Source: Candidatus Poribacteria bacterium (lineage in GTDB: Bacteria > Poribacteria > WGA-4E > WGA-3G). From it: a stretch of DNA of 64,000 bases. Below are positions 5,105 to 56,123 of this stretch, in pieces. Position numbers and translations under genes: made by a program. The notes below the pieces were generated by a model. It was not told the DNA's origin and did no database searches. It was given only the letters and a program-made list of their open reading frames with translations. Numbering within the stretch: the first letter of the stretch is position 1; each line of letters begins with the position of its first letter. Where the stretch lies: the NCBI GenBank assembly GCA_022824265.1, contig JAJEAG010000024.1:27521-91520 (forward strand), read 5' to 3'.

Positions 5105-5153
5105 TTCTTGTCTCCTTCCTATCTGTTCATTTACAAGTTCAGTTTTGATTACA

Positions 5154-6083
5154 TTACTTATGGATTGCTTTTATTTTTTTGTCAGTCGGCATCGACGGGG
5201 TTGCACCGAGTACTGTGCACGCTGCTGCACCTGCAGCTGTAGCGTACTTTACCGATTCAGTTATATTGTTTCCATTTGCAAGTGCAGTTGCCAATGCACC
5301 ACTGAATGCATCTCCAGCCCCTGTTGTATCTATTACATCAACAGGAATCGCAGGAATATGTTCGGTTTCCGTTGGTGTACATAGTAGGACACCTTGTTCC
5401 CCAAGTGTCAGCACTACAGACGAAAGTCCATCTTGGTTTATTTGCTTCTGCAATGTCTTTGCAGCTGCAGTTCTCTGTTCAGATGTGGTAAACTCTTGTC
5501 CAGATAAAACTGTAGCCTCCGATGCATTAGGTGTCAATATATCAATTTTCTTTAATAAATCAACTGGCAACTGGCGTGCCGGTGCTGGATCAAGCAGGAC
5601 AATTGTCCCGTTTTCCCTTGCAATCTCAGCAGCACGTTGCGATGCATCAATCGGTGTTTCTAATTGTAGCAGCAACACATCTGCGTTTGCAATGCTATCT
5701 CCTGCAGCGTCTGTATCTGTTGGTGTGATACACATATTGGCGCGTGGTACAACGATGATGCTATTGTCTCCATCCGGCTCAACAACTATCGTTGCGATAC
5801 CTGTACCGTTGTCAGCATCGGTCTTGACAAATCGTGTGTCAATTTGTTCTGATTCCATTGCAGTTTGGAGCATCTCACCGAATGCATCCTCACCAATTCT
5901 ACCGATGAACGTGACTTCTGCTCCTAAACGCGCTGCAGCTGTTGCCTGATTGAATCCTTTACCACCAGTGAAGATGTCAAATGCTTCTCCGATGAGGGTT
6001 TCACCTTTGTTTGGCATCCGTTCTGCGCGAATTACAAGGTCAACATTTGCACTGCCAACTACAGTGACTTTAGGGTGGTGCAT
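5154..6083 (-). CDS. rbsK: Ribokinase or PfkB-family sugar kinase
   Basis: VVGSANVDL start, GGKGANQA-like motif and C-terminal DTTGAGDAF PfkB signature. GC content is visibly higher (~50%) than the flanks. Confidence 0.8.
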   Translation of the reverse strand: MHHPKVTVVGSANVDLVIRAERMPNKGETLIGEAFDIFTGGKGFNQATAAARLGAEVTFIGRIGEDAFGEMLQTAMESEQIDTRFVKTDADNGTGIATIVVEPDGDNSIIVVPRANMCITPTDTDAAGDSIANADVLLLQLETPIDASQRAAEIARENGTIVLLDPAPARQLPVDLLKKIDILTPNASEATVLSGQEFTTSEQRTAAAKTLQKQINQDGLSSVVLTLGEQGVLLCTPTETEHIPAIPVDVIDTTGAGDAFSGALATALANGNNITESVKYATAAGAAACTVLGATPSMPTDKKIKAIHK

Positions 6084-6163
6084 CTGTGCATACTATCCTT
6101 TGTAATGGCAATTGTTGATTAATCTGACGAGGGGTTGGAAATTGCACTCACATAAGATGCTTT

Positions 6164-6550
6164 TTATTTTTCCGATTCGTCTAATTCTTGCATGAATGTT
6201 TCAACACTGGTAGTCTGGACTGCTTTACGATGCAGTTCTGTCAAACGATCAAGGTCCAGAATAGATTCAAGGGCATCCGACACAGGTTGTACATTGCTCA
6301 GCGGAAAACGCTCAGTGAGTACAGATAGAATATTGCTAATGGAATTTTCACGTGCACCTCGTTCATAGAATCGCTGTTCCAAGTGTTCTATAAAAGGAGA
6401 TTCTCGCATCATTTCCTCCGATATAAGTTTTTGTAAAAATGTAAGGTCATGGGCTAAACTACCTAACGTTGACATCGCAAACAAAAGTGTTCCACGCGTC
6501 TGTGTATCAACTGGTGCGGCAACCGTCTTCTCAACACATCTTTCTAACAA
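6164..6550 (-). CDS. DUF4351-like C-terminal fragment of an Rpn/YhgA-type PD-(D/E)XK nuclease-transposase-like protein, probably a remnant
   Basis: ILSVLTERFPLSNVQPVSDALESILDLDRLTELHRKAV resembles DUF4351 C-terminal regions. It uses a TTG start. An out-of-frame 44-codon ORF (6544..6678) overlaps its start, which suggests a frameshifted gene. Confidence 0.35.
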   Translation of the reverse strand: MLERCVEKTVAAPVDTQTRGTLLFAMSTLGSLAHDLTFLQKLISEEMMRESPFIEHLEQRFYERGARENSISNILSVLTERFPLSNVQPVSDALESILDLDRLTELHRKAVQTTSVETFMQELDESEK

Positions 6551-6801
6551 TATATGTGTTTATACCTATCGGAGTCAAGAGTCTCTAAAACTTCAACATC
6601 GGGTGTGTCAAAGGATAGCATGGCGAAGTCATCGGCGAACCGATCCATCAGATGCTTCACGATTTCATCATATTGTGCCATGCTAATTGTTATACCTTTT
6701 CCTACAGGTTTGTTTTATTGATTATACTTGAGGGGATGGGTGGATTGTCAAGGAGAGTTTTTGATGTGATGTTTTGGAAACTGTGGTAAAATAAGGATGT
6801 A

Positions 6802-8010
6802 TTAAGCATTGGTATTAACTCTTTCAACTGCATGCTCAAAAGTATTCTTATAGACTGTACTTTTCATTCTACTTCGAATGAAGGTCTCAAGTGATCTTAT
6901 GCCCTTTTTCATTTCTTCGCGAACTCGACTTGCTTCAAAGTTGAATGTATACAGATTATGGCATGCTCGACGATGAATGTGGTTATTTCCATCACGATCT
7001 TCAAGATAGTCTATGTACAAAAGGGCATCGTTCTCGTTGCTAATTGAAAAAACTTCCCCACCTTCAACATCCCAATCTTTTACTATAAAACCCTCATTGT
7101 TAATCAACTGAAGTAAATGCTGTGCAAAATCACGACGATTTTGCTGATATTTGACGGGGTTTTTCTCCTTTTCTCTTTTGGAGAATCGTGTCCAGTGAAA
7201 ACCAGGTAATTGAACGTTTTTGAATGCTGCACTAAGCATCCAACTCTGTGAATCAACCGTATCAGCTCCACTGTAAAAAGCAAATAGCATTAACAACGCA
7301 GATCCCATTGAAAAACAGTGTATATGTGAATTAGGAAGAAGTTCTCGAACCTTATGAATAATGTCAATGGCTGTCCGTTTATTCCCGTTAAGTGCAAGTG
7401 GAGCTAAACTCCCAATACCAATAATAGAAGGAGTATATCCATATATTTTGACTATATTATCCAGTCGGCGTTTGAGAGTGCTTGGATTGTGACCGTGAAT
7501 AACTGGCATTAGTTGAAATCCATTGGGAATATCTCCATTTAGTGAATCTAATCCTTCGAACATTTTACGAGTGTTTTTTAGTGTATTTTGCCAACGCTTG
7601 CTTCTTTCTCTCCCATCAGATTCTGGTAGGAAAGGATGATCAAGCACAACTGATATATTAACCTTAAACTCAATTCCAACTTTAAGTACGTCAACAGCAT
7701 CTATGCTAATTTTGTTCTGTTTCTGGAAATTAAAAGCACCAGAATCAAGCATCAGAGGTCCATTAAACTCTATATATTCATGGAGTTTTCCGGGTCTTTC
7801 ACGGATTTCCGGAGTAAATAGACGTGTTCGTTGGTTTGCTAATATATCAAATGCATTAACGAGAAGTGCTTGGGTACCAGTGATTTTCCACGGATGGAAA
7901 GCCAAACCTGCCCGCGGAAAATCACCTATGCGATAACTGGCAAAAAGATTGGGTGTTTCAAATGAGAAATTTTGAAGAATGGAAGGAATTGCTATATCTT
8001 GATCCATCAA
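6802..8010 (-). CDS. tRNA-guanine transglycosylase (TGT)-fold protein, DpdA-like. Last gene of the six-gene operon.
   Basis: PLMLDSGAFNF aligns with TGT DSGGFQ. VVLDHPF aligns with aFDEC. IGIGSLAPL / LPNSHIHCFSMGS / GADTVDS follow the TGT (beta/alpha)8 core order. No CxCxxC...H zinc site. Start overlaps the upstream ATPase by 4 nt. Confidence 0.5.
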   Translation of the reverse strand: MMDQDIAIPSILQNFSFETPNLFASYRIGDFPRAGLAFHPWKITGTQALLVNAFDILANQRTRLFTPEIRERPGKLHEYIEFNGPLMLDSGAFNFQKQNKISIDAVDVLKVGIEFKVNISVVLDHPFLPESDGRERSKRWQNTLKNTRKMFEGLDSLNGDIPNGFQLMPVIHGHNPSTLKRRLDNIVKIYGYTPSIIGIGSLAPLALNGNKRTAIDIIHKVRELLPNSHIHCFSMGSALLMLFAFYSGADTVDSQSWMLSAAFKNVQLPGFHWTRFSKREKEKNPVKYQQNRRDFAQHLLQLINNEGFIVKDWDVEGGEVFSISNENDALLYIDYLEDRDGNNHIHRRACHNLYTFNFEASRVREEMKKGIRSLETFIRSRMKSTVYKNTFEHAVERVNTNA

Positions 8011-9176
8011 TTTCCATCTTCCACTATCAGTTTCATTCGTTCACGCATTCTTTCTAAAAAAATTCCTGGTAAAACCTTAAATTCAACCTTTTCCATATCT
8101 TCTTTTAGTGAATTATATTCTATCTCAATATCATTCCTATCAAGTGGTTTTAAGTCAATTGTATTAGATCGATTTGGTATGTCTAACTTACGAACAATTT
8201 CAAAGTTGTCACGTCCATTTTCTAAGTAGTCGGACACATACTCAATTGCAAGTTCAATGTTGTCTATTGGTTGAAGTTCTAATGGTTTACCTAAACGTCT
8301 TTGAATAGCGGGATATTGTCCAAGATCACTAGGGTCAGGAACTGTGGCAACTACAAAAAAAACTAATTCATTTAATGTATCAAAACAATGTCGTAAATCC
8401 TGTGCATACTGTGATTGACGTGATCGAGTTAATCCTTCAAATATTTCCTCAAATTCATCAAACAGAAGTATTATACCATCACATAGGTTTGTTCTTTTTA
8501 AGACTACAAGTAATCCGTATAGGAAACGTATAGCAAGTGACGAACTCGTAATATCAATAGGTTGCTTTCCCAAATGAGTTAATAGTTTTTTGTCTGCTGC
8601 AAGGAGTTTATGTCCTTTTAGCCAACGAATAAACGCATCTTTTTTTCGTTCTTGAAAGGTAGTAAACAATTCAGTTTGGATAATTGCTTTGATTATTTCC
8701 AATAATTCACTTGCAGTATTTTCCTCTTCTGAAAGTTTATCTATTTGAGTTTTGTCTGATTTTAAAGTTGTAATAAGATTATTCATAAAAGATTCTGTCA
8801 GTTTATCAACAATCTTTGCATGTATATTTAGATACGCTTCACCTGGATCTGAGATATAAATTGGATAAAGATTACCAATTTGCTTACTACGTCTTGCTTC
8901 GTCGGTCAATTTTTCAAAGTAACGTAAGATATTTGTCTTACCAGCATTGTGTTTACCGTTTATGCACAACCTTTTTGCGTCTGATGTAAAATTATTTATT
9001 ATATAAAAAAAGGTTTGTTTAATTTCTTCTTGGTCACTACAAACTTCAAAACGCGTTTCGCCAGGTCCAGGAAATGGATTTTTAAGTAGATTATATTTTT
9101 CATATGGACTGGAGATTTGTGGTTTGTTACCAATTTTAATCAGGTCTTTTTTCCATGTCATTGTTATTTCTCCCAA
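8007..9176 (-). CDS. P-loop AAA+ ATPase (AAA_16 / Cdc6-like type)
   Basis: Walker A INGKHNAGKTNILRYF and Walker B IILLFDEFEE. The N-terminal NPFPGPGETRF resembles the Cdc6/AAA_16 lead-in. Translationally coupled to the flanking genes. Confidence 0.6.
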   Translation of the reverse strand: MGEITMTWKKDLIKIGNKPQISSPYEKYNLLKNPFPGPGETRFEVCSDQEEIKQTFFYIINNFTSDAKRLCINGKHNAGKTNILRYFEKLTDEARRSKQIGNLYPIYISDPGEAYLNIHAKIVDKLTESFMNNLITTLKSDKTQIDKLSEEENTASELLEIIKAIIQTELFTTFQERKKDAFIRWLKGHKLLAADKKLLTHLGKQPIDITSSSLAIRFLYGLLVVLKRTNLCDGIILLFDEFEEIFEGLTRSRQSQYAQDLRHCFDTLNELVFFVVATVPDPSDLGQYPAIQRRLGKPLELQPIDNIELAIEYVSDYLENGRDNFEIVRKLDIPNRSNTIDLKPLDRNDIEIEYNSLKEDMEKVEFKVLPGIFLERMRERMKLIVEDGN

Positions 9177-10105
9177 CGAATTAGTTTGATCAATTTACCA
9201 TTCACATGCAATCCATCCTCCAGATAACGATAGTCAAGCCATAATGATCCTTTTCGCATAATATTCCTAACTTTTTTGGTTTCCTCAATATTCAGTAATT
9301 TTGCAATTAGACGTTCGCTAAGTATTTCATTCCTTGGTCGAATTGAAATGATTTGGTAATTCCCTGAAATTTCACTGCGGATCGTTGCAGGAGCAAGTGT
9401 TATTTTTCCGGGAAAATTTTTTACAAATAGGTTCATTTTCATCTCAAAAGCCTGAAAAGAAATCCGCAATTTCCGACATACGAGATGTGCTAACTGTCCA
9501 AGGTTTGCATACCCAGACGTTTTTTCACACTGGTTGTAACTTTCCCAACAAGCTGTTCTGAAAAGTTTTAACGACGGTTGTTTTTCATCCCATTCTCCTC
9601 CCCAATAGATGACTCCTTCAAAAGGAGAACGGTATGCATGTCCTACTGATACCGACCATGCCTGAAATGTATCAAAAGCGACGAAGGTAATGTTATAATT
9701 TTGTTTTATCTTAAGTCCCAAATCTCTTCGAGATGCTTTATCATTGCGTTGCGGAATTTTGATTTCGCCTTCATTTTTTAGGCATTCAAGGAAATCTGCG
9801 TAAGGGGGATAATTTCTCAATCCTTGATTCATCGGCAGCAAATGATTTCCAGAATTCCAAGCACCAATAAAATTATCATAATTTTCAGTCAGGCACAATA
9901 CATTATGATCTTGTTTACACTGAGTTAACCATTTGGATTCACTAAAGATACGTAGAATATCTTTCACCCTACGATCAAGACGTTTTATTTTACCTTGACT
10001 ATCTACAATTTCATATAGTATATCCAGTGAGAGTTTATTATCATCACGGTGTGTCTCAATGGAATCAGCAATGGAAAGTAATTTATTCATGGTAATTGGG
10101 TCCAC
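9164..10105 (-). CDS. Hypothetical protein, 313 aa, operon member
   Basis: Long ORF in an operon with overlapping start and stop codons. No recognisable motif. Confidence 0.5.
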   Translation of the reverse strand: MDPITMNKLLSIADSIETHRDDNKLSLDILYEIVDSQGKIKRLDRRVKDILRIFSESKWLTQCKQDHNVLCLTENYDNFIGAWNSGNHLLPMNQGLRNYPPYADFLECLKNEGEIKIPQRNDKASRRDLGLKIKQNYNITFVAFDTFQAWSVSVGHAYRSPFEGVIYWGGEWDEKQPSLKLFRTACWESYNQCEKTSGYANLGQLAHLVCRKLRISFQAFEMKMNLFVKNFPGKITLAPATIRSEISGNYQIISIRPRNEILSERLIAKLLNIEETKKVRNIMRKGSLWLDYRYLEDGLHVNGKLIKLIRWEK

Positions 10106-10108
10106 TTA

Positions 10109-11185
10109 TCATTCCTCCTGGATTTCCATGACATCACGAGCAAAGAATCCACCGCGTGCCTGTGAGTAATAAACAAGTTTGTATGTGCGAGATAATTTTT
10201 CGTTCACTAAACGAATAGTACTGAACACCTGCGCCAAATCCCAAAGTAAATAATGTACAGGGGTTAGTAACCACCTTTTATTGTAGGAATCGTATCGTAC
10301 CGAACTCATCTCCTTACGCATAGAGGGAACACTGATGTGGAGACTGTCTTGGTTTTCTAAGGTTGCCAGAGAAGCCATATCTTTATCTCCTGTGAGCAAG
10401 TAGACTCCTTTTTGTATTCCTCGACTCTGCTTGAAATCTTTCAAACTTTCAATAATCAGGCGGTCATTCTTTGAATCAATTTTGATCTGATCTAAATGTT
10501 GAGGAATACTCCTTAGGATTTCTACAGGTCTCCATAGACGAATGTGACTCAATTCCCTACTAATACATGAAACTTGTGGACGCTTTTCCAAAACACGGTA
10601 TTTAGCGATGTTTGGGTTAGTGCCTCTTCCGCTTTTTTTCCAGATTTCATTCATCTCATATACTTGTTGTTGTATTTCAGTCATCACGAAAACCGGAACA
10701 ACCGTCCATATTGGCACAGTACGTAGTGTCATATGCAAAAAAGAAGAAATTGCTCTCCGTAAGGCACCGGTGTCCACGACGAATGTTAAATATCCATGTT
10801 TTGAAAGTTGTCTCATTACCTCAAGGAATTCTAATTCAATAGTTTGTTCTTCCATTAAGCAAAACTTTGGACATAGAAGTCCTGTTCGTAGCATACTGTC
10901 CGCGAGTTGATCCCAAATAAGTTTTCTTGCTTGATCTGCTATATTTTCTTTGGAGGATAATTCAGAAAAACGAGATTTAATATCTTGATTAGCTACAGGT
11001 GCAAAAGTAAAAGGTAGAATTGGATATTCTCGTGCTGTTTTATCGGATTCATCAATTGTAATATAAGCCAACTTAATATAATTACAATTTTCAAGATGAG
11101 TCCCGTCTGTATAAGATACCTCCCATTTTCCCCAAAAAGGATATTCGGCTATAAACTCATCAAGTTTTAGTAGTCGTTTACCCAT
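10109..11185 (-). CDS. Hypothetical protein with a putative PIN-like nuclease domain
   Basis: Spacing of acidic residues matches a PIN core: LTFVVDTGALRR, VPVFVMTEIQQ, NDRLIIESL, VYLLTGDKDM. The N-terminal ~130 aa is unknown. Confidence 0.4.
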   Translation of the reverse strand: MGKRLLKLDEFIAEYPFWGKWEVSYTDGTHLENCNYIKLAYITIDESDKTAREYPILPFTFAPVANQDIKSRFSELSSKENIADQARKLIWDQLADSMLRTGLLCPKFCLMEEQTIELEFLEVMRQLSKHGYLTFVVDTGALRRAISSFLHMTLRTVPIWTVVPVFVMTEIQQQVYEMNEIWKKSGRGTNPNIAKYRVLEKRPQVSCISRELSHIRLWRPVEILRSIPQHLDQIKIDSKNDRLIIESLKDFKQSRGIQKGVYLLTGDKDMASLATLENQDSLHISVPSMRKEMSSVRYDSYNKRWLLTPVHYLLWDLAQVFSTIRLVNEKLSRTYKLVYYSQARGGFFARDVMEIQEE

Positions 11186-11591
11186 CAGAAATTCTCACTT
11201 TGTAGTCAGTACGCTGGTGGTGGTTCTGCAAGATTTCCTGTACAACAGCGGTTAAAATTGTGCTTGATTTCAACGCTGGCCTGGAAATTTTGTCTTCAAA
11301 TTCCTCACTAGATACTTCCATATCTGTTTGTATATCTTTAAATACAGAAAATACCTGCTTTTTTAACGGATCGGGTAAATAGAAATCTACTTCTTCAGGA
11401 TTTGAAAATGTAGGCATTTTAGTTTCAGGGTCTTTTGAATCCAAATTCACGACCTTATCTAAGAGAGAATCCAAATGAATTATTATTTCATTTTCATTTC
11501 TCCATTGTTGAAAGTCAAGAATAGAAAGATCTGGTACAGAATAAATCTCAACTACTTCTTGTGTTGAGGGATTAATAATTTCTAATTTCAT
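11178..11591 (-). CDS. Hypothetical protein, 137 aa, operon member
   Basis: ORF overlaps the downstream gene start by 8 nt. No motif recognised. Confidence 0.45.
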   Translation of the reverse strand: MKLEIINPSTQEVVEIYSVPDLSILDFQQWRNENEIIIHLDSLLDKVVNLDSKDPETKMPTFSNPEEVDFYLPDPLKKQVFSVFKDIQTDMEVSSEEFEDKISRPALKSSTILTAVVQEILQNHHQRTDYKVRISDG

Positions 11592-11622
11592 CTATGTTCC
11601 ATTTTGCAAAAGTGTGTGAATC

Positions 11623-12066
11623 CTATTCCCATAACCATTTTTTTAACTGAGTCTGTCTTTTGCCTATCACTCCGTGTGTAAAAACGGACCTTGTAGGCAT
11701 TGGAATCTTATGTTTCAAATCCTCAAATGCCTTCTGGTAGGTCCTTCCAAGTACAAAGCAAATTGAAGCATGATTTTTTCGAAGAATGTCTGAAAAAGTT
11801 GTTTTGATTTGAGGCTGCAACTCAACTACCCGTGAGAAGTTCATCTTTTGATCATAGAATTCAGTTTGAAAATCTGCTGGAATAAGTCCATAATATGCAG
11901 ATAAGATGTAAACATCCAACCATTCTGCCTTGAGCGGACATTCACGAAGAAAACGTCGTAAAACAAAAAATAGTGGACCGTTATATCTTTCAATTGCCGG
12001 CAACTGTTCTTGTGAAGTGTTTTTGCGTTGTGAACAAGATAAAATCAGCAAACGTTGACTGTTCAT
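11623..12066 (-). CDS. Small hypothetical protein with a YaaA/DUF328-like N-terminal motif, first gene of the operon
   Basis: LLILSCSQRKN...PAIERYNGPLFFVL is reminiscent of the YaaA N-terminus (MLILISPAKTL...RY). It is much shorter (147 aa), so similarity is tentative. Confidence 0.4.
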   Translation of the reverse strand: MNSQRLLILSCSQRKNTSQEQLPAIERYNGPLFFVLRRFLRECPLKAEWLDVYILSAYYGLIPADFQTEFYDQKMNFSRVVELQPQIKTTFSDILRKNHASICFVLGRTYQKAFEDLKHKIPMPTRSVFTHGVIGKRQTQLKKWLWE

Positions 12067-20356: not shown

Positions 20357-21802
20357 TTATTCGACTATAGATTCTTCGTTAAATAAATCCTTGAGGTCTA
20401 TAAGTAGAATATCATCTTCAGCTGCTCTATATTTTAAGGATTCTGTAAAGCCACTTGCAGAAAACAGAATATATCTCGGATCCTGCTGCCATTGAGTTGG
20501 TACTCTTTTTGACCTTTCAATCAGACGTGCCAATACATTTTCTCCAACTGGTTGATTCCACCATTTACATTCTCCAAATGTATGACTACCATCTAAGTTC
20601 TCTGTCATTATGTCAATTTCAATATCTGATTCCCAATGTCTACCCACAAGTATTGGAGGACTCATTAACTTTTCCTTCCCGAACAGACTAACATACTGTA
20701 TACATACATCTTCAAAGATTTCTCCCATATACTGTGATAAGTTCGGCTCAATCATTTGTTTATATACCAAATCTGAATTCTCTGATTCTATTAGACTCCT
20801 ATTCGGTAATACAAAGCGAAACCAGAATTTTATATAGTTTTCTGCTATTTTGTATATACCTTTTTTGCTTTTTAGTGGTGCTCGTTCCGTCACTGGAGTT
20901 TCTCGTTCTACCAATCCTAATTCCCTGAGAACACTTAGGTATTTATTTACACTTGTTGTACTAAGTCCAACTCTTTGTGATATTTCATTTAATCGCGTCA
21001 TACCACCAGCAACTGCTTGTAATATACTGGCATAAGTTCTGGGTTCTCTTAGTTCGGTTCGTAACAGAAAATTTACTTCATCAAATAAATATCCCTGAGG
21101 TGTGAGTAACTCATTTATGATACTTCGTTCAATATTTTTATGATATGTTTCTTTCAAATTTTGGGAAAAGTCTATTGTAAAACGATTCAGATAGGATGGT
21201 ATTCCACCAAGCATTCCATATACAAGCAATTTCTCTTTGTTTGTATAGTCAGGAAAGAACTTAGCACTATCTCTATAGGATAATGCTGTTAACTTTTTTT
21301 GGCTTGTCCTTCTCCCAAATAATGGTGATTTTTCAGCCAGCACTTCACCTTCCATAAAACTAACATGCGATCCACATAATATAAGGAAGATTCTACTGTT
21401 TTTCCCATGTAAGTCCCAAAACCGTTGTATAAGAGATGGTAGTGCAGGGTTGTCTTCACAGAGATATTGAAATTCATCAAGAACTACAACTAACCGCTCT
21501 TCTTGAGCCTTTTGTGCAAAATAGATTAATGCAGATTCCCAATCTCTAAATGTCATATTCTTTAGTAAAGGATCATCAATGACATGCTGTGCAACTTCCA
21601 TTACCTGATTTAGGTGATCACTTTCTTTCAACTGACTTGCCAGAAAGTAGATACTCCGTTTGTCCTTACAAAACTGCAACAGTAACTCAGTTTTTCCTAT
21701 TCTCCGTCTTCCATATAACACAAACAATTCTGGACTCTGTGTTTGATACATTTTTTCTAAATGATTTAATTCTTGTTCTCTGTTAATGAACACAGATTTC
21801 AC
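20357..21802 (-). CDS. AAA-family ATPase with a C-terminal DUF234 domain (Arch_ATPase type)
   Basis: Walker A YGRRRIGKTELL and Walker B VVVLDEFQYL. Length ~480 aa, typical of the ATPase+DUF234 family. Confidence 0.6.
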   Translation of the reverse strand: MKSVFINREQELNHLEKMYQTQSPELFVLYGRRRIGKTELLLQFCKDKRSIYFLASQLKESDHLNQVMEVAQHVIDDPLLKNMTFRDWESALIYFAQKAQEERLVVVLDEFQYLCEDNPALPSLIQRFWDLHGKNSRIFLILCGSHVSFMEGEVLAEKSPLFGRRTSQKKLTALSYRDSAKFFPDYTNKEKLLVYGMLGGIPSYLNRFTIDFSQNLKETYHKNIERSIINELLTPQGYLFDEVNFLLRTELREPRTYASILQAVAGGMTRLNEISQRVGLSTTSVNKYLSVLRELGLVERETPVTERAPLKSKKGIYKIAENYIKFWFRFVLPNRSLIESENSDLVYKQMIEPNLSQYMGEIFEDVCIQYVSLFGKEKLMSPPILVGRHWESDIEIDIMTENLDGSHTFGECKWWNQPVGENVLARLIERSKRVPTQWQQDPRYILFSASGFTESLKYRAAEDDILLIDLKDLFNEESIVE

Positions 21803-47165: not shown

Positions 47166-48812
47166 ATGAACGAAGAAGGAAAACAACCCGCACAGATGCC
47201 ACATCAAATAGATGAAGGCAAGTATAAGAAACTATTCGGTTTAGATATTTACTTGACTCCTGTATTCGTAATTTCCAGTATTACAATTATTGTTTTTATT
47301 GCTGGTTCACTCATCTTTCGTGAGCAAGCGACAACACTTTTTGGTAATCTTAGAGTCTGGCTTACTACAAACCTCGATTGGTTGTTCATGGGGACTGCCA
47401 ACCTCGTCTTTCTCTTTTGTCTGTTTGTGGCACTCTCCCCACTGGGTAAGATTCGGTTAGGTGGATCTGATGCAAAACCTGAGTATTCATACTTAACCTG
47501 GCTCGCAATGCTTTTTGCTGCAGGCGTTGGTATTGGTCTTCTCTTCTTTGGTGTGTCGGAACCGGTTACCTATTTTCAGGGAGGTAGCTATTCACCGTTG
47601 GGAATAGAAACGGTTTACGACGCAACAACAGACTACAATGCTGAAAACGTGCCTGATATCGGAGATCCCGCAGTTAAAGCAGCGGCTTCATTGGGTATAG
47701 CAGCAACAGTCTTTCACTGGGGACTACAAGGATGGGCAATCTATGGAGTCGTAGGACTCGCCCTTGCATTTTATGCATACAACCGTGGATTACCTCTCCT
47801 CATCCGCTCTGCATTTTATCCCATATTCGGTGATAGGATATGGGGTTGGACTGGACATATCATTGATACATTTGCCATATTTGCTGGTATCTTTGGACTC
47901 GCAACATCCCTCGGTTTAGGAGTGCAACAGGTAACCTCTGGTCTTGACTATCTGTTTGGGATACCAGCGAACAGTGTCACGATGGTCCTTTTGATTGTAT
48001 TTATTACGTCTATTGCCCTTGTTTCCGTGATGACAGGGATTAATGTCGGTATCAAACGTCTCAGCCAATTCAACATAATACTCGCGTTTATACTGCTGTT
48101 AACTATTTTTATTCTCGGTCCAACAGGCTACATTTTTCGAAGTATGTTCGCTGGACTTGGAGCCTATGTCATGAAAATAGTGCCGCTTAGCAACTGGGTC
48201 GGACGTGAGGACACTGCATTCCTACACGATTGGACAACATTCTACTGGGCATGGTGGATTGCTTGGGCACCCTTCATTGGTACATTCATAGCTCGCATTT
48301 CAAAAGGACGCACAGTACGCGAGTTCGTCGTCTTTGTCTTGTTGCTACCGACGTTGCTATGTACGATCTGGTTTGGTGCCTTTGGTGGCACTGCTCTTCA
48401 CCAGTTTCTCACCACAGGTTTCACGGGTGTAACAGAAGAAGTTGAGACCTATAATTACCCACTTGCTCTGTTCAAAATGTTTGAAGGACTCCCGTGGGCA
48501 ACGCTGCTTTCTTGTGTCGCAATGACGTTGACTATTGTCTTTTTCGTTACCTCGTCAGATTCCGGTTCTTTGATTATTGACATCATCGCAGCTGGTGGTA
48601 AGGTTGATGCACCAATACCACAACGTGTGTTCTGGTGCACTGCAGAAGGCTTAGTTGCTATCGCATTGCTACTTGGTGGCGGATTGAAGGCTTTACAAGC
48701 CGCTTCACTTGTAACAGGTTTCCCTTTCGCAATTGTGTTGTTAGGGATGGGTGTATGTGTTTATATTGGTCTCCGCGATGAAAATCGCAAATTGCAATCT
48801 GAAAACGAGTAA
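47166..48812 (+). CDS. BCCT-family (betaine/carnitine/choline) transporter
   Basis: WTTFYWAWWIAWAPFIGTFIARIS BCCT signature. Twelve predicted TM segments. Confidence 0.8.
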   Translation: MNEEGKQPAQMPHQIDEGKYKKLFGLDIYLTPVFVISSITIIVFIAGSLIFREQATTLFGNLRVWLTTNLDWLFMGTANLVFLFCLFVALSPLGKIRLGGSDAKPEYSYLTWLAMLFAAGVGIGLLFFGVSEPVTYFQGGSYSPLGIETVYDATTDYNAENVPDIGDPAVKAAASLGIAATVFHWGLQGWAIYGVVGLALAFYAYNRGLPLLIRSAFYPIFGDRIWGWTGHIIDTFAIFAGIFGLATSLGLGVQQVTSGLDYLFGIPANSVTMVLLIVFITSIALVSVMTGINVGIKRLSQFNIILAFILLLTIFILGPTGYIFRSMFAGLGAYVMKIVPLSNWVGREDTAFLHDWTTFYWAWWIAWAPFIGTFIARISKGRTVREFVVFVLLLPTLLCTIWFGAFGGTALHQFLTTGFTGVTEEVETYNYPLALFKMFEGLPWATLLSCVAMTLTIVFFVTSSDSGSLIIDIIAAGGKVDAPIPQRVFWCTAEGLVAIALLLGGGLKALQAASLVTGFPFAIVLLGMGVCVYIGLRDENRKLQSENE

Positions 48813-49087
48813 TAATCTCTATTGATCACTTTAACATTTATGTGATGGATGAATATTCGTCCATCACATAAATTCTATCATTTATAGTGAAACATCAAGA
48901 TAAGTTACACTTTTTTAGAAGCGATCTCCGAATCGCTCCTAAACACACTGATTTTCGTGTATCGGAGTTCCCTCCTATAACCATTAGTATATAAATAATT
49001 CTAAAATTAACCATAAATGACTTTGTAGGTGTAAAATATGTAAACAGAAAGCAAGAAGTTACGAACTCAATTTACATATTGACTTGA

Positions 49088-52000
49088 CTAATCGGGTTTC
49101 CACCAAGGTGCGAGTCTGGGAGGAGAACCAGAACCAAATTCTTCGCCTCGACAGAATTCGTCAAGTTTTCTGCCGAAAACTTTTATATTTCTTCTTAAGT
49201 CTGAAGGATTTCCCCATCGTGACCAAAATCTATCTACGAGCGCAAGGAATTTAGGATCGTATTCTTGTATTTCATTATAAAGTCCTTCCTCTTTTCCAAT
49301 TTGGTAATGCCACCAATTTGCAGTGGGTGTCAGAGCAGGTTTCAATTGCTCAAAAACTGCAGATATTCTAAATAAATCTTGATTTTGTAAAGCCTCTCTG
49401 TAGGCTTCTCTGCAACTATGTTCTTGTTGCGCCACTTCGTACGCCCATGCTGCATGTCTACGAACCCACATGCTTGGATCAATTGATTTCAAATCCTCAA
49501 GTAGTTCAATGGCTTTGCCTGTTCCAAACCACGGCAAAATCGAGACCCCCAAGTTGCGTTCTTTTGCGTAATGGCTTTCCAAGTATTCCTTTTCGACTAA
49601 ATCCAATAACTCTTTCTCACCCCGTCCTGTTATAGCAGCAATTGTCATTAACATTATTTCTTCATCGTTTTGACATTCCTCTAAGAGATTATGTCTAAGT
49701 TGTACATGTTGTGGTGTATTACATTGTTCCACTTTCCAGATTTGAGCGTGAAAGGTTTCAATTCCATATTGGTTATAATTAAAAGTTCTTACATTTCCAG
49801 TTCTCCATTGTTGAAATATTTTAATTGCTTTTTCTGGTTGAAAGCGTAGTAACAAACAAAGGATAACATCCGTAAAATCGCTTAAGTCCCTTCTATACCA
49901 TGGAGATTTAGAAAGTTCTGTTAGATATTGATCTGATAGATATAAGAATTCATTTTGATTCTGTTCTGCCCAAGTTTGGATCACATCTCGGTTTATCCCA
50001 TACCGTGTATCTTCAACAACATTAGGATCATTTTCAATCCTTCTGAGTATTGATAACATACAATTCATAAGGTCAATGCCCCACCGCGAAAGATCATCCT
50101 GGCGGTCTGGTCCACAAAGGAAAGAACCTATAAATTCTGGGGGTATGAGCGATCTTAGTGACTCATAGGAAGGCACATCATTCCCCTCATAAGTAGGGAT
50201 TATCCATTTTCTTCCGTTCTGTGAAAAAAGATGATTCTGTATATTTTCATCCTTTTGTGTTTCGTTTAAAAATAGTTTTGGAAGAGAATATGCTAATCGC
50301 AGCATTGGATATGTTCCCGTTGAATCGGGTTTTCTCATCTTAAGATCTTCTAATGCATACTTTACTGTTCTATCCTCATGTTTAGATGCATAAGCAAATA
50401 ATGCACACCAATATTCCTCCTCCAAGAACTCTTCCGATTCCTCATCGGAAATAATCTGATTTTCCTGAGATAAAGTTCGGAATTCTTCCAACTTCTTCTG
50501 TGCTAATTCAATAATTGAGACTGGTAACAGTTTTTTAAACAAACAAGGCAATGACTCATAGCAAATTGAAGACCTGAGTGGTTCCTGAGACGCTAGGAAC
50601 TCAAACCAATCTATGAGAATTTCCTCAGATGCACAAAATAGGAGAGATTCTGTTAATAAATGAGTTAACCAAGCAACATCCGAATAATAATCTTCACCTT
50701 GAACAAGTCGTTTCTTCATTTTAAGAATTGCTTCTGTGATTTTTTGGCAATCTTCCTGTCTAAAAATAAGACCCTGAATTGACAATAGTTTGAACTGCGC
50801 CCATTTTTGAGGTAGAGTATTGATTTTAAGATTACAAGCAAGTTGAGCGTAACCCTCAGCATCATATTTTGCTATCCATGGCATTAAGTTTTGTATACAA
50901 TAGTCCTCAAGTGAAGCATCTACCCCTTGTCCGAGTTTGACATTTTTGGATATGTAGTGTAATATCTTCTTAATACTATTTAAATCTGCATTATGCAAAT
51001 CAGGTAAATCTGTCCGAGCCGCTAAATAATCAAGACCATGGTAATTGCCATTCACATTTTCTGCAGGTGACCTGTCTTTTAGTAACATCTCTTGGTCCCG
51101 GATCCGATCAATAAAAGGCTTGAAAGTGCTGTTCCATTTTTCGGCAAATTCTTTCCTTTCTTTGTTCTCCTCAGAAGGTGGACGCTGCAGTTGTTTATGT
51201 AAATTCGCTTGTTTAAGCTCACTTGCTAAACCATACACGCCTTTAATCAAATGTTCATCGGATGGATCTTGTTCTACTAATGAACGTAAGTCTTCTAATA
51301 TTGATTCAGTATATTCCCACCGTATTAGTCTACCTATATTTTTATTAAACTCAGGTTTTTGCTCATGAATTGCATAGCAGCGGGCAAGTGTAGGTAAAAA
51401 TTGACATTCTGGTCTTTGAGACAGGATAGAAAGTGCTGCTATTGCTAATCGAGTTTGTGTATAGTACATTGTTGGAAATGGAAGACTCTTAGGATTAATA
51501 TTGTCATCGCCATTTATTACTTCATCAGCATATGTAGGCAGAAGCCATTTTGTAAGACGCGATGCTAAATCATTAAGTTCACCTTTTTTGGTTCGCCAGA
51601 CTCTTGCCAATGGCTCAATGAGTGTATCCTCCTCATTTGGTGAAAGTTGATTTTTAAATTCCAATTCAACAACTTGACAATAAGCATCTGTGTAGTTTTC
51701 AACGCAAACAGACAAATGTTTTTTAGTAATTTGTGCATTGTGGCTATTAAACCAAGTAAACATTAAGGCTGCTTGTTTCTTAGAAATGTCAGAATCAGGA
51801 GATATTGCCATGATTTGGAGAGCATCAAACAATGCTCTTGTTCTCAGATCTTCTGAAGGAATTGGTTCAAGTGCCCTCTTTAAGCATTCAACCAAGTCAT
51901 TAATTTCTGCAGACTCCTCACTGTCAATTTGATTAGAGAGATATAATGCCCATCCAAGAACAATATGTTCGGAGCTTAAATTAGCGTGGACTAATCCTGC

Positions 52001-53515
52001 GTCAAGTACAATCCTTTGTTCCTCCAAGTCATGACGGATTTCATTGTAGTTCGGGAAGAACTTTAGAAGCACCTGAACAGATATTTGAGGAACATTATCA
52101 TCCGTCCATTTAACTTGTTTAGCAAGTTCTGAAAGTATTTCTTGGGCATCTTTAGCTTTATGCCATCCGAGTTTCTGTTTAAGCTGGGGATTTGTTTGAT
52201 CAATTTTATCAAGGAGATCAACCCACAAAACCAATTCTTTGGTTACAGTCTCAAATGAACCAAATCTATCACGTAACCGAATACATGTTTGAAAGTAACG
52301 TGGGTTTTTTGCAATATCCTTTAGTGAATCTGGCAAGTCATGAAGTTGCATTCCTTCTTTGGATAATGCCTTTTGCAATTCAGGATCGTTATAAGGGGTT
52401 ACTGAAATTTTATGGCACTGGTCCCACAAATCTTTCTCAAAGTCTGGGTAATCGCTTAAAGGCCGAGTGGTAAATAGAAAACCAATTCTATCTTTCCATT
52501 CGCTATTATGCCGAAAATAATCATTAAGGATGTGCTGTGCTGTTTCAATGGCATCTCTTTCATTTACACCGTCAAGTACAATAAGCGTTTTACGCCAGAT
52601 TTTTGCGGGTTTGTTTTGAAGCTTGGTTATCTTAGCTTGTTCAGAAGATGGATAGATTAAACTAAAACAGTTGTAAAGCAAGTCAAAAATAGACTTACTA
52701 CCTTTCCAGTCTTTACTATCTATCCAAAAGGTGGCAATATTTTCATTTTCCCCAATTGAGTTCATCCACTTAGCGGCAAACCATGTTTTACCAGTGCCTT
52801 CCTCACCTTCAAGGTAGCAAACTGATGTATCTTGCATTTGCCACCAATCTGTGATTTGTGATTGTAAGGATCCTCTATCTATCGCTTGAGTTAAGTCAAT
52901 CGGATTGAAGCCTTCATTCCGGTTAAAACGTTCAGTGAGATATTTTTCAACTTTCCGTTGAACGTGTATTTGGGTTTGGATTCCGTCTTCTAATTTGAAT
53001 TTGAGCTCTTCTAATTTTTTCTTTGTTTCTGCGTCATTCTTCATTTCTTCAATCCAAACTAAATAATCTTGGTCTGTGTCTGATAGATCAAAAAAGTGAC
53101 ATATTTTTTCCCAAAAGGTTATACACAATGCTCCGATATCTGATAAATCATCAGAAAGTTCAAGTAAAACTATATCCAAACCTGTTTCCAAACTAATTGC
53201 ATCTATTCTGTCGCGTATTTGCGCTGTATCACGAGAAACTGCCAAAACATATACTTGAAGATGTGATAATGTACGTATTACATTACGAATATCTCCTTCA
53301 ACTTGATTAGCATTAGGAGTATTATCACTCGTATACCTTTTTGCTTGCATTGATACTTCACCAGAGATGCTTCTTGCATCTCCACTTGGTTGTTCACCAG
53401 CTCTTGCAACGACAAAAGGTATTTTTAGAAACGATTTTAGTAATACCGCAACAAGTTCTTCAAACTCATTAGGCTTTATTTTGTGGATAAGTTCTTTTAG
53501 TTTTAGCCAACTCAT
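49088..53515 (-). CDS. Avs-like STAND NTPase with N-terminal Mrr-type (PD-(D/E)xK) nuclease domain and C-terminal helical (HEAT/TPR-like) repeats
   Basis: N-terminus FEELVAVLL...GDARSISGEVSMQAKRY...DIVLLEL matches the Mrr_cat pattern. Walker A YLEGEEGTGKTWFAAKW and Walker B TLIVLDGVNE (NACHT-like hhhhDGhDE). Length 1475 aa with a long alpha-helical C-terminus. Confidence 0.6.
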   Translation of the reverse strand: MSWLKLKELIHKIKPNEFEELVAVLLKSFLKIPFVVARAGEQPSGDARSISGEVSMQAKRYTSDNTPNANQVEGDIRNVIRTLSHLQVYVLAVSRDTAQIRDRIDAISLETGLDIVLLELSDDLSDIGALCITFWEKICHFFDLSDTDQDYLVWIEEMKNDAETKKKLEELKFKLEDGIQTQIHVQRKVEKYLTERFNRNEGFNPIDLTQAIDRGSLQSQITDWWQMQDTSVCYLEGEEGTGKTWFAAKWMNSIGENENIATFWIDSKDWKGSKSIFDLLYNCFSLIYPSSEQAKITKLQNKPAKIWRKTLIVLDGVNERDAIETAQHILNDYFRHNSEWKDRIGFLFTTRPLSDYPDFEKDLWDQCHKISVTPYNDPELQKALSKEGMQLHDLPDSLKDIAKNPRYFQTCIRLRDRFGSFETVTKELVLWVDLLDKIDQTNPQLKQKLGWHKAKDAQEILSELAKQVKWTDDNVPQISVQVLLKFFPNYNEIRHDLEEQRIVLDAGLVHANLSSEHIVLGWALYLSNQIDSEESAEINDLVECLKRALEPIPSEDLRTRALFDALQIMAISPDSDISKKQAALMFTWFNSHNAQITKKHLSVCVENYTDAYCQVVELEFKNQLSPNEEDTLIEPLARVWRTKKGELNDLASRLTKWLLPTYADEVINGDDNINPKSLPFPTMYYTQTRLAIAALSILSQRPECQFLPTLARCYAIHEQKPEFNKNIGRLIRWEYTESILEDLRSLVEQDPSDEHLIKGVYGLASELKQANLHKQLQRPPSEENKERKEFAEKWNSTFKPFIDRIRDQEMLLKDRSPAENVNGNYHGLDYLAARTDLPDLHNADLNSIKKILHYISKNVKLGQGVDASLEDYCIQNLMPWIAKYDAEGYAQLACNLKINTLPQKWAQFKLLSIQGLIFRQEDCQKITEAILKMKKRLVQGEDYYSDVAWLTHLLTESLLFCASEEILIDWFEFLASQEPLRSSICYESLPCLFKKLLPVSIIELAQKKLEEFRTLSQENQIISDEESEEFLEEEYWCALFAYASKHEDRTVKYALEDLKMRKPDSTGTYPMLRLAYSLPKLFLNETQKDENIQNHLFSQNGRKWIIPTYEGNDVPSYESLRSLIPPEFIGSFLCGPDRQDDLSRWGIDLMNCMLSILRRIENDPNVVEDTRYGINRDVIQTWAEQNQNEFLYLSDQYLTELSKSPWYRRDLSDFTDVILCLLLRFQPEKAIKIFQQWRTGNVRTFNYNQYGIETFHAQIWKVEQCNTPQHVQLRHNLLEECQNDEEIMLMTIAAITGRGEKELLDLVEKEYLESHYAKERNLGVSILPWFGTGKAIELLEDLKSIDPSMWVRRHAAWAYEVAQQEHSCREAYREALQNQDLFRISAVFEQLKPALTPTANWWHYQIGKEEGLYNEIQEYDPKFLALVDRFWSRWGNPSDLRRNIKVFGRKLDEFCRGEEFGSGSPPRLAPWWKPD

Positions 53516-53562
53516 TTTCTCTTTCCAATATTTCTACAAGATTTTGGTTTTGCTTCCAAATA

Positions 53563-55017
53563 TCAAAATTCCTGACTCCCTATAATATATGCATTTAAGT
53601 GATTCAATGCACTGCCATCATCCATTACTGACTTTGTGCGTTTGAGTGCTTCGTGTGGGTCAGGAGAAATCCCTAATAGATAATCTACCATAGCAGCGTT
53701 AAGCAGAATCCTATCGTAGATATGTCCTTTCTCTCCAGATAATGCAGCTATTCCTGCTTCTGTATACGCCTCAGCATTAACACTATCTGGTCGCGGATTT
53801 ACCTTATATTCAAATCCATAGGTTTTTGGATCAATGTCCAATGCAAAATCTTCGCGATTTCCATCAATGTGTCGGAATCCTTGTGAATAGTTGACTGCCA
53901 TTCTTTCAGGTGTAGATGGTTTCCCGAGACGAAGTGCGTAATGGCTTGTGCCTTCTTCACCTTTTATCGCAATTGCAGCGTGAAAACCTCGTTCATAAGC
54001 CATTTGAAGTAATGGTTTTTCATATCCAATGTGGTAGTAACCTATAACCATGTAATTCCTCTTACGAGCTGAGAAGAATTGTAGGGCTTTTTCCGTAGCA
54101 GCCCATGGCGGACGTTTCATGATATGCACACGTAATTCACGAATGTCATAAGCTCCAGGTGAATACTCACGTTGACTGGCATATCCAAACCCAACCGCTT
54201 TATCTGTAATTAATTGTGCTGTCTGTTCAAGTGTTAGATCAGTTTTTGCACCAAGTGCTTTCAATAACGTTTCTTCGGTGATACCATTCTTAGGTGGCAT
54301 TTCATCCACACTATGAAGCAGAGAAGGTTCTCCCAGTGCTGCTCTTACTGCTGCAACAAATAGAGTTGGACGGAAATAACGGGTTGCGCCGTCGTAAGGT
54401 TGTCCAAAATGGGTAAGGTTATCCACATCAATGGCTTTGATCTGTTCTGGATCAAAATAGGAATCAAGATATCCTCGAACTTCGTCGTAAGTTTCCCTGT
54501 TCATACGTTGTCCAATAAGCGCGGCAGCCTTTAGTGCCGGTTTAACTTTGTCAGAAAGGATGACTTCACACATCTGTCTTGTTTCTTCGTAACTTAAGTG
54601 CTTTGCTTGTAATATCTTTTCTAATGCGGAAACAACGATTGCCTCGGTTGGGTTATTGGGAATATAAACAATTTCTGGGTTGATAAGATATTGAATCTCT
54701 TTCGGCAAACGAGATAATAAAGACGGTAGGTATTTCTGAAATGCAGTTTTTTCTGCGGGGGACCACTGTGTTTCTTCAGGAAAATATTTTCTTAGGGTCA
54801 TTGCAACGAAAAATGCACCCAATTGTGCTTCTGAAACCTTCTCGTCGTGTCCCAATTGTCCATTCAACGAGTCTAAAACAGTTTCAAGGATGGCATCTGG
54901 CTGTGGTCCATCTGAAGGCTTTTTCCCTAAAGGACGTGTTTGATGAGGTCCGGTGCAGACACGTGCCTGCGCTTCAAGCATATCTTGATTGGGACCGGGA
55001 TATTGAGGAGTGTACAT
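53563..55017 (-). CDS. Divergent glycosyltransferase-family-3 (TrpD / nucleoside phosphorylase II)-fold protein
   Basis: AIAIKGEEGTSHYA resembles the TrpD VVHG.DGLDE motif. C-terminal GSALNHLNAY resembles the TrpD GSALEKLEAL seen at the window start. The N-terminal ~150 aa are extra. Confidence 0.35.
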   Translation of the reverse strand: MYTPQYPGPNQDMLEAQARVCTGPHQTRPLGKKPSDGPQPDAILETVLDSLNGQLGHDEKVSEAQLGAFFVAMTLRKYFPEETQWSPAEKTAFQKYLPSLLSRLPKEIQYLINPEIVYIPNNPTEAIVVSALEKILQAKHLSYEETRQMCEVILSDKVKPALKAAALIGQRMNRETYDEVRGYLDSYFDPEQIKAIDVDNLTHFGQPYDGATRYFRPTLFVAAVRAALGEPSLLHSVDEMPPKNGITEETLLKALGAKTDLTLEQTAQLITDKAVGFGYASQREYSPGAYDIRELRVHIMKRPPWAATEKALQFFSARKRNYMVIGYYHIGYEKPLLQMAYERGFHAAIAIKGEEGTSHYALRLGKPSTPERMAVNYSQGFRHIDGNREDFALDIDPKTYGFEYKVNPRPDSVNAEAYTEAGIAALSGEKGHIYDRILLNAAMVDYLLGISPDPHEALKRTKSVMDDGSALNHLNAYIIGSQEF

Positions 55018-55379
55018 ATTTTTTCTTCCTTGTTCACATCTGATTAGATTAATATATCATATTCATTCAATATAATCAATTCTTCATTATATGAAGTTAG
55101 CGTCATTTAATTGTCGATTTTTCTGTCTGAATCTCGGATGCACAGAGGACGTAGAAGATTTTGATCCTACAGTCCATCCCCCCTTGCAGGGTCGGGTTTC
55201 TCCATCCAAATAAAGAATAAAACAGATATAACGGGCGGGGAAACCCCGCCCCTACATAGGAATTCTATTATCAATGCTTGCGCGACTTGTTTGCATGTCA
55301 TGATTTTTGTGAATGATTTGACGGTGAATTGTTTGTGTTTTACTTGTAAATGCATCGGTTTTGCTCCTTCTAAAAACGC

Positions 55380-55800
55380 ACTAAAAACGGGTGTTTTTTG
55401 CACATTGGTGCGTTTTGATATTTGGAGTTATACCAGTCTGAGACTGGGTTTATAGGGGTTTTTGAAAATTCTGAATTTTTCATTTTTGGTGCGTTTTTTA
55501 TTTGCTTGGTTATGGTCGTTTTTTGGTGGATGTTTTTTGGGGGACGGGTGCCGGTTTTTGTTGAGAATGTGGGGTGTAAGCGGTTTTTGTGTTTCATAGT
55601 GTTTGTATTATAACAGGTGTTAAGCGTGAATGGAAGGGTTTGTGGACCTGTGAACAATATGTTTCATGTATGTTTGGAGTAGTTTTCAGTTTTCAGTGGT
55701 CAGTTTTCAGTTTTTTGTTGTCTGAATCGCGGAAGGCACTGAAGACGCTGAACGGAGTTTGGTGGGGTGGAGACTTTTTCAAGGAATTGTCGTATCTCAG
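55380..55800 (-). repeat. Inverted, diverged copy (B) of the CA-rich element, GT-rich on the + strand
   Basis: Its reverse complement shares ACAT(G/A)AAACATATTG, GCACCAAAAAT...TTCAAAAACC and CCAAATATCA in the same order as copy A. A homologous AAGGAGCAA RBS follows, with a small hydrophobic ORF at 55167..55352. Confidence 0.5.
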
Positions 55801-55988
55801 ACGTAGAGAACGATCAATCCTTGATTCAAGCAGAAAGTAATCAAGGGAAGAAACCTCTACTATAAGATTACAACGCGATGATTGAATGTCTATGCATATA
55901 TCTCGGAGTGTTAATATTTCCTACATGGGATACAATAACAGTGTAGTGTTCTGCCATATTTCTGATGGTGCTAAATAAAATGTATCAC

Positions 55989-56017
55989 ACTAATTTTCTT
56001 GACTTTTCCGCTAAATT
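55989..56017 (+). promoter_or_regulatory. Sigma70-type promoter for tRNA-Pro
   Basis: TTGACT, a 17-nt spacer, then extended -10 TGaTACTAT. About 32 nt upstream of the tRNA 5' end. Confidence 0.5.
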
Positions 56018-56049
56018 GTGATACTATAATTGGGTAATTTGTATTAAAA

Positions 56050-56123
56050 CGGGGCGTGGCGCAGCCCGGAAGCGCGCTTGAATGGGGTTCAAGAGGTCGC
56101 TGGTTCAAATCCAGTCGCCCCGA
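56050..56123 (+). tRNA. tRNA-Pro (anticodon GGG)
   Basis: Folded by hand. Acceptor CGGGGCG/CGCCCCG, D-stem GCGC/GCGC, anticodon stem CUUGA/UCAAG with loop AUGGGGU, T-stem GCUGG/CCAGU, T-loop UUCAAAU, discriminator A. No encoded CCA. Confidence 0.8.

Follow-up and report, generated by a model that had tools for sequence, protein, structure and literature searches.

The gene and its domains

The 64,000-nt stretch of DNA analysed here (the window), positions 27,521 to 91,520 of contig JAJEAG010000024.1 from a Candidatus Poribacteria bacterium, carries on its minus strand a gene for a protein of 1475 amino acids (aa) in which a predicted Mrr-type nuclease, a STAND NTPase and a long helical solenoid succeed one another in a single chain. 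We consider it probable that this gene, called the STAND gene below, encodes a single-chain, NLR-like antiviral STAND protein of the Avs/bacterial-NACHT kind. Its parts are the following.

49088..53515 (-): complete gene for the 1475-aa Mrr-STAND-solenoid protein, from the open reading frame (ORF) list and its translation; ATG start, stop codon at 49088-49090
53096..53515 (-): aa 1-140, predicted Mrr-type PD-(D/E)xK nuclease effector domain (AlphaFold2 topology and invariant residues)
53459-53461, 53378-53380 and 53339-53347 (-): candidate catalytic residues E19, D46 and Q57-A-K59, respectively
52871..53095 (-): aa 141-215, helical linker between nuclease and NTPase (AlphaFold2 helices at 149-197)
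52346..52870 (-): aa 216-390, P-loop nucleotide-binding domain (Pfam match and invariant residues)
52784-52807 and 52559-52585 (-): Walker A, GEEGTGKT, and Walker B, LIVLDGVNE
51836..52345 (-): aa 391-560, helical and winged-helix part of the STAND module (AlphaFold2 secondary structure and alignment with PDB entry 8DGF; inferred boundaries)
49091..51835 (-): aa 561-1475, all-alpha HEAT/ARM-like solenoid, putative ligand sensor (AlphaFold2 model)

In a word-indexed search of 5.8 billion proteins, more than 120 clusters match the 1475-aa protein at 55-72% identity and align from residue 1-2 to the C-terminus, and both the ORF and its start codon are therefore taken to be genuine. An earlier note on this DNA, made from the sequence alone, had proposed the same ORF of 1475 aa, and the translation and the full-length homologues bear it out. 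The three motifs that it had picked out are all present (QAKRY at aa 57-61, GEEGTGKT at aa 237-244 and LIVLDGVNE at aa 311-319), and the domain order that it proposed, an Mrr-type nuclease followed by a STAND/NACHT P-loop and a long helical sensor, is upheld by these motifs and by the AlphaFold2 models. The sensor, described there as exceeding 1000 aa, is indeed helical but measures about 915 aa (561-1475), and passes 1000 only with the NTPase's helical and winged-helix parts included. A regulator with a helix-turn-helix (HTH), or the loss of the Mrr catalytic residues, would have spoken for a role outside defence; the Pfam scan found no HTH or other regulatory output domain in the 1475-aa protein, and the residues in question are invariant.

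For aa 1-600, 74 sequences went into an AlphaFold2 model, whose mean predicted local distance difference test score (pLDDT) is 80.7. In this model, aa 15-119 have the order alpha-beta-beta-beta-alpha-beta-alpha-beta, i.e. the topology of PD-(D/E)xK nucleases. Residue conservation was read from an alignment of 65 diverse relatives whose identity to the window protein is no more than 16-51%; F18, E19, G40, Q42, D46 and K59 are invariant among them, and position 57 is Q in 39 and E in 26. Judged from this alignment, the predicted nuclease motif is E...D...(Q/E)xK, with the Mrr variant in some sequences and the canonical ExK in others. With Pfam, Mrr_cat does not match the window protein at E <= 10 and matches 5 of 19 close homologues weakly (best E 0.0032), and three of ten distant family members pass its cut-off of 21 bits (26.5, 26.2 and 23.3 bits), one of these also passing Mrr_cat_2 (25 bits against 22). 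Because of the fold, the invariant residues and this transitive homology through distant relatives, we assign aa 1-140 to the Mrr-type nucleases, with catalytic residues E19/D46/(Q/E)57-x-K59 that are predicted to be intact. The linker that follows (aa 141-215) is the least conserved N-terminal segment, its mean pairwise identity within the Poribacteria family being 0.545.

From its motifs, the region of aa ~216-560 is classed as a NACHT-like STAND NTPase. In the window protein the Pfam NACHT match is marginal (27.0 bits against a cut-off of 26.7) and NPHP3_N also matches; many homologues have precomputed NACHT, NPHP3_N or NB-ARC matches. Invariant in the 65 relatives are G242 and K243 of Walker A, D315, G316 and N318 of Walker B (in which E319 is also listed), and R351, a candidate sensor-1 arginine. 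Walker B reads D315-G-V-N318-E319, a fixed variant DGhNE with Asn for the first of the two acidic residues in all 65 relatives; the NACHT signature given by Kibby et al. is D[GAS]hDE. The best PDB sequence matches of the family profile, weak and situated in the P-loop region, are the NACHT domains of NLRC4 and NLRP9.

The model of the putative sensor (aa 561-1475; pLDDT 83.5) is entirely helical. The sensor ends in a conserved tail, PRLAPWWKPD, and nowhere is the Poribacteria family more conserved than in its last 270 aa (mean pairwise identity 0.709). A Foldseek search of the PDB gave SF3B1, CAND1 and importins, all of them HEAT solenoids, as the best matches of the sensor model (E ~1e-4), and no Avs chain, Avs4 included, was among its top 50. 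The helical-repeat sensor anticipated by the earlier note was thus recovered as a solenoid, but not the likeness to solved Avs sensors.

It was a different matter with the model of aa 1-600, for which chains of 8DGF ranked first and second in the same kind of search (E 1.2e-10 and 2.4e-10, over 617-631 columns). Four to five orders of magnitude separate them from the next match, at E 5e-6, which belongs to a group that includes CED-4, NLRP7, EfAvs5 and ORC; the TM-scores to 8DGF are low (0.30), as is expected for a multi-domain model. This entry, which contains Avs4 with the PhiV-1 portal, is called EcAvs4-Mrr-portal in a later preprint (10.64898/2026.08.25.746987). On the strength of the model, we regard the predicted effector and switch half (aa 1-600) as structurally Avs4-like, and the clear first place of 8DGF, together with the invariant catalytic residues, supports the antiviral-STAND-like reading that the earlier note had put forward.

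A widespread family with exchangeable effectors

An exhaustive HMMER search with aa 1-600 against 1.84 billion representatives found 641 clusters (at 50% identity) with E <= 1e-3, and 372 with E <= 1e-10. Most of these clusters are 1500-1600 aa long and align from their first residues. Some relatives align only from about aa 200 onward, and four of the seven of these that were examined (P0246, P0250, P0280 and P0294) carry TIR_2 in place of Mrr, with E down to 1.6e-13. The alignment with the window protein is clear for both the NTPase and the C-terminal sensor of P0246 (over window aa 217-1461), P0250 and P0280, while the sensor of P0294 aligns only weakly. These TIR-STAND relatives are uncharacterised metagenomic proteins, which in the first three cases differ from the window protein in the effector and resemble it in the remainder. 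The exchange of toxic effectors on a constant chassis of switch and sensor is a hallmark of immune STANDs.

The family is widespread in the phylum Poribacteria. With the GTDB data, in which each species is represented by one genome, all 26 close loci belong to Candidatus Poribacteria, and the proteins of the phylum are 48-72% identical over their full length, the sensor included.

The chromosomal site and its empty counterpart

The surroundings of the STAND gene are best described by comparison with L036, a Poribacteria chromosome of 5.2 Mb. The features concerned are these.

48791..53583 (.): segment of 4.8 kb present here and represented by 60 nt in L036, a single-gene indel (blastn collinearity and L036 gene map)
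53563-55017 (-): TrpD-fold gene, 484 aa, with a ~125-aa N-terminal extension, a strong Glycos_trans_3N match and a weak catalytic-domain match (E 0.0015)
56050-56123 (+): tRNA-Pro(GGG), the sole tRNA in the window
48836..48873 (+): hairpin with 19-bp arms after the BCCT gene, terminator-like by consensus match only, in the convergent intergenic region

By blastn, window positions 55062-53584 are collinear with L036 7955-9434, and 48790-47692 with L036 9495-10593. In L036, 20 nt separate the TrpD-like gene from the convergent BCCT gene, with no STAND gene between them, and beyond the BCCT gene this chromosome keeps the same genes as the window out to a MetE-like gene. Since 4.8 kb of the window have 60 nt as their counterpart in L036, what varies is the STAND gene by itself. 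Its neighbours, the BCCT gene, the TrpD-like gene and the tRNA-Pro, lie outside the indel and constitute conserved core synteny, not an islet. A Poribacteria homologue with 62% identity (L002) stands in the same order as here, TrpD-like gene, STAND gene, convergent BCCT gene and two further genes, and in such syntenic loci the neighbours are 80-92% identical as against 54-68% for the STAND protein.

These comparisons alter the picture of the locus drawn in the earlier note, where the tRNA, the TrpD-fold gene and the BCCT gene had together suggested a horizontally acquired defence islet. The tRNA-Pro is near the STAND gene but not adjacent to it, being 2.5 kb from the gene start with the TrpD-like gene and ~1 kb of non-coding DNA in between; as an integration site it was rejected, since the indel boundary at 53583 is 2.5 kb away. 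The BCCT gene is convergent, as had been said, but is no sign of an islet, because both it and the genes beyond it are conserved in synteny. With a flat GC content, a TrpD-like and a BCCT gene in core synteny and an indel end far from the tRNA, the grounds given for an islet do not hold.

Could the upstream TrpD-fold gene nevertheless form a two-gene system with the STAND gene, as a partner enzyme or as the guarded target? The two are on the same strand with a gap of 47 nt. Moreover, when genes were counted around the STAND gene in 21 full-length or near-full-length Poribacteria loci (a small set, given as plain counts), a TrpD-like gene stood upstream in five, as it does in the window, and this even where no BCCT gene was detected (L007, L019 and L025). 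Most STAND loci, however, have no TrpD-like gene, and the latter is present without a STAND gene in L035 and L036. In the five loci with both, the TrpD-like protein is 80-85% identical as against 55-68% for the STAND protein, and so evolves far more slowly. It has 662 matches at E <= 1e-20, with 67-91% identity among the best 120, and is a highly conserved core gene of Poribacteria that is unrelated to the STAND gene; PADLOC had no meaningful match to it either. We consider such a pair very unlikely. The best NCBIfam match of the TrpD-like protein, below cut-off, is PRK07394 (hypothetical protein).

The neighbourhood offers a few further observations. The ~1-kb gap between the TrpD-like gene and the tRNA-Pro (55018-56049) has no ORF of at least 100 aa and no Rfam match, and contains a strong GC-rich hairpin at 55233-55251 (-); a Rfam search over 46-58 kb returned the tRNA only. 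Where the window has the tRNA-Pro and a homoserine dehydrogenase gene, L002 has a Hen1-Pnkp RNA-repair pair just upstream of its TrpD-like gene (3865-7899). The window looks like ordinary chromosome of the Poribacteria type, and its gene content includes MetE-like, DUF4432, DUF3352, BCCT, homoserine dehydrogenase, YceD, planctomycete-type cytochrome, sulfatase and TPR proteins. One member (6802-8010) of a run of six ORFs at 6802-12066 (-) encodes 402 aa that weakly match TGT (queuine tRNA-ribosyltransferase; E 1.4e-14), and this run could be a 7-deazaguanine/queuosine-related cluster. At 20357-21802 (-) there is a gene for a 481-aa Orc/Cdc6-like ATPase with ATPase_2, DUF234 and an IclR-type HTH.

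Defence genes and mobile elements beside the relatives

Among the 21 Poribacteria loci, a Type ISP restriction-modification (R-M) gene of ~1030 aa lies upstream of the STAND gene in 11, and a 95-aa BrnT toxin gene directly upstream in 10. Examples are the following.

L033 5988-9101, L034 6457-9540 and L042 3291-6383: Type ISP R-M genes (ISP_coupler, N6_Mtase, Type_ISP_C)
L032 9730-10240: brnT and the extension of the STAND protein described below, with equivalents in L033, L042 and L008-L024

The trio of Type ISP, BrnT and STAND genes occurs in at least two different flanks, Ldh_2/OTCase and, in another genome, DctP/B12-binding; the latter genome holds a second STAND paralogue, preceded by Phd-like and HNH genes. 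This Phd-like and HNH combination is found upstream of the STAND gene in L041 and L026. Two STAND orthologues are split by DDE-type transposases, as judged from the translations (425 aa at L025 10997-12274 and 315 aa at L023 10561-11508), and L030 and L031 retain nothing but frameshifted C-terminal STAND remnants. Farther afield, one distant relative is located between two integrases, a relaxase and SSB, another is on an Azospirillum plasmid with IS66 on both sides, and a third is on a Manganitrophus plasmid beside SAVED, a DEAD helicase and XamI R-M. The STAND gene appears to be dispensable, given the empty site, the copies disrupted by insertion sequences (IS), the C-terminal remnants and the two paralogues in one genome.

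The BrnT-linked copies have a peculiarity of their own. An N-terminal extension of ~75 aa is present in 61 of 122 Poribacteria homologues, and its 38-aa core (DPMPPPDATPEEIGEFWDTHSLADYWDETHEVEFQVNL) hardly differs among the 61 homologues that bear this motif, while the 120 listed homologues are just 55-72% identical to the window protein. The sole Pfam match of the extension, below cut-off at E 0.0037, is to positions 8-42 of the 79 of CopG_antitoxin. In the three loci where the genes have been called (L032, L033 and L042), the brnT stop overlaps the STAND start by 17 nt. To judge by these sequences, it seems that brnT is succeeded here by a fusion in which the N-terminal half of a BrnA-type antitoxin precedes the Mrr-STAND protein. 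Perhaps a toxin-antitoxin interface has here been co-opted as an adaptor: the STAND protein would use the antitoxin-derived peptide to restrain or recruit BrnT, and on oligomerisation would set it free or switch it on, the outputs would be a DNase and an RNase, and the window copy would be a stripped-down form that has lost the module. We offer this as a tentative and, on the whole, rather unlikely scenario; the BrnT-linked sister copies do nevertheless suggest a way to couple a toxin-antitoxin pair to a STAND switch.

Poribacteria are sponge symbionts, and with this lifestyle in mind the combination of a eukaryote-like NACHT with HEAT repeats might be taken for a symbiosis factor that interacts with the cells of the sponge host rather than for a phage sensor. 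Many ankyrin and TPR proteins near the STAND loci would suit such a role, as would the fact that animal NLRs are the closest PDB sequence matches of the NTPase. The protein, however, begins with its nuclease domain at residue 1, and no export domain was found in it, although signal peptides were not scanned for directly; it has relatives on plasmids of the free-living Azospirillum and Manganitrophus; and the Mrr/TIR effector logic is that of intracellular immunity. This explanation strikes us as exceedingly unlikely.

Harder to dismiss, though still quite unlikely in our opinion, is a non-immune STAND ATPase specific to the Poribacteria lineage, vertically inherited and kept for a cellular function such as stress or DNA-damage signalling or genome maintenance. 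The confinement of all 26 close loci to this phylum, the conservation of the full length at 48-72% with the sensor included, the conserved chromosomal neighbourhoods and the flat GC content would all be natural for such a protein, and defence and non-defence STAND clades are interspersed according to the 2026 preprint of Lee et al. It would not be natural for it to carry a fused effector that is predicted to be a catalytically intact Mrr nuclease, with TIR as the alternative, and no HTH or other regulatory output domain that Pfam detects; nor would one expect the empty site of L036, IS-disrupted and decayed copies elsewhere, and a family linked to R-M systems, toxins and mobile elements.

Proposed function

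We favour the immune reading because of the anatomy of the protein, its conserved residues, the similarity to 8DGF, the swap of effectors, the linkage of the relatives to R-M, toxin and mobile genes, the faster divergence of the STAND protein than of its neighbours, and the pattern of presence, absence and IS-disruption. A number of observations weigh against it. The GC content across the gene is flat, at 0.36-0.40, and the window has housekeeping neighbours and contains no integrase and no other defence gene; repeats or att sites at the flanks of the indel amount to short matches at chance level. Conservation over the full length is unusually high for an immune receptor, the sensor being 57-71% identical within the phylum. 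The sensor matches generic HEAT solenoids only, and therefore no ligand can be proposed. The family does not seem to be typically virus-borne, with no matches in phage genomes and one weak locus in viral contigs. With PADLOC v2, the window protein has no Avs match at E <= 1, and 12 relatives that span the family have none at E <= 0.01 except for weak Avs2 P-loop matches. There is no sequence-level match to any solved Avs, a phmmer search of the PDB with the whole protein being empty.

On the immune reading, the protein would work as follows. In the resting state, the nucleotide-bound NTPase would keep it monomeric, with the N-terminal Mrr nuclease off. The ~915-aa HEAT-like solenoid would bind a conserved protein of an invading phage or other mobile element, and the binding of this ligand would lift the autoinhibition. 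The NTPase modules would then oligomerise in an ATP-dependent manner and bring the Mrr domains together as active dimers, which would cut DNA indiscriminately and lead to abortive infection. We infer the ligand binding, the stoichiometry and the DNA cleavage from Avs3, Avs4, Avs7 and bNACHT25; the nucleases of the three Avs proteins are activated by tetramerisation (10.64898/2026.08.25.746987).

If this is true, the NLR-like immune sensors described so far would be joined by a large family, of 641 clusters at 50% identity, which the PADLOC models of Avs1-5 miss. From a sensor conserved throughout the phylum one would expect the ligand to be a phage protein that is itself conserved, and this could provide a handle on the viruses of sponge symbionts. 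No cultured representative of Candidatus Poribacteria is known, nor any characterised phage-host system for it. On the immune reading, the clean empty site also indicates that a single immune gene of 4.8 kb can sit between core genes without the hallmarks of an island, which calls for some caution in island-based searches for defence systems.

Comparison with known systems

Measured against a broad description of Avs proteins, the STAND protein unites in a single chain an effector at the N-terminus, a STAND NTPase in the middle and a sensor of 400 aa or more at the C-terminus, its Walker A lysine and Walker B aspartate are intact, and a defence-type effector is interchangeable among the relatives (Mrr or TIR_2). 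Known defence genes alongside, the last of the features usual in such a description, are seen with the relatives but not in the window, where the neighbours are housekeeping genes. Membership of Avs1-5, for which the earlier note had looked to the PADLOC models, was not found, given the absence of any match for the window protein or the 12 relatives save the weak Avs2 P-loop matches. Since PADLOC, the sequence profiles and the sensor model all fail to reach them, we do not file the protein under Avs4 or any other of Avs1-5. The NCBIfam AAA+ matches of the window protein are all sub-threshold, and haemagglutinin matches obtained when the profile of the N-terminal domain was compared with the PDB were rejected as spurious.

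EcAvs4 is alike in having an N-terminal Mrr-type nuclease, a STAND NTPase and a large C-terminal sensor in one chain of ~1500 aa. The identity in the structural alignment is nevertheless just 16%, and the family sequence profile misses 8DGF. The window protein's sensor is unlike the portal-binding sensor of EcAvs4, and consequently a portal ligand is not to be assumed.

The smaller bNACHT25 of E. coli ECOR11 (WP_001702659.1, 752 aa) consists of an Mrr-like REase, a NACHT/nSTAND4 domain and NCH1, and thus has the N-terminal Mrr-like effector and the NACHT-type NTPase in common with the protein described here. Its catalytic D48 is at nearly the same position as D46 in the window protein. It is half as long, it ends in a short helical domain where the window protein has a 915-aa solenoid, and its Walker B is DSVDE as against DGVNE. 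This protein is experimentally anti-phage, and a mutation of D48 in the Mrr-like effector abolishes its toxicity (10.1101/2022.07.19.500537). A close relation between the two was considered and rejected: hhalign of the family profile with the first 399 aa of bNACHT25 gave a probability of 24%, over the P-loop domain only.

Finally, Lee et al. describe at least 90 structurally distinct Avs (sensor) families and 198 defence-associated STAND clades. The general design of these expanded Avs families, with Mrr in their effector repertoire, is shared by the window protein, a comparison that we made by design and not by sequence. The design as such, that of Avs proteins and bacterial NLRs, is therefore already known, whereas the family united by this HEAT-like sensor is sizeable, unnamed and uncharacterised. 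The shared sensor may define an Avs family whose ligand lies beyond the sensed phage proteins listed so far.

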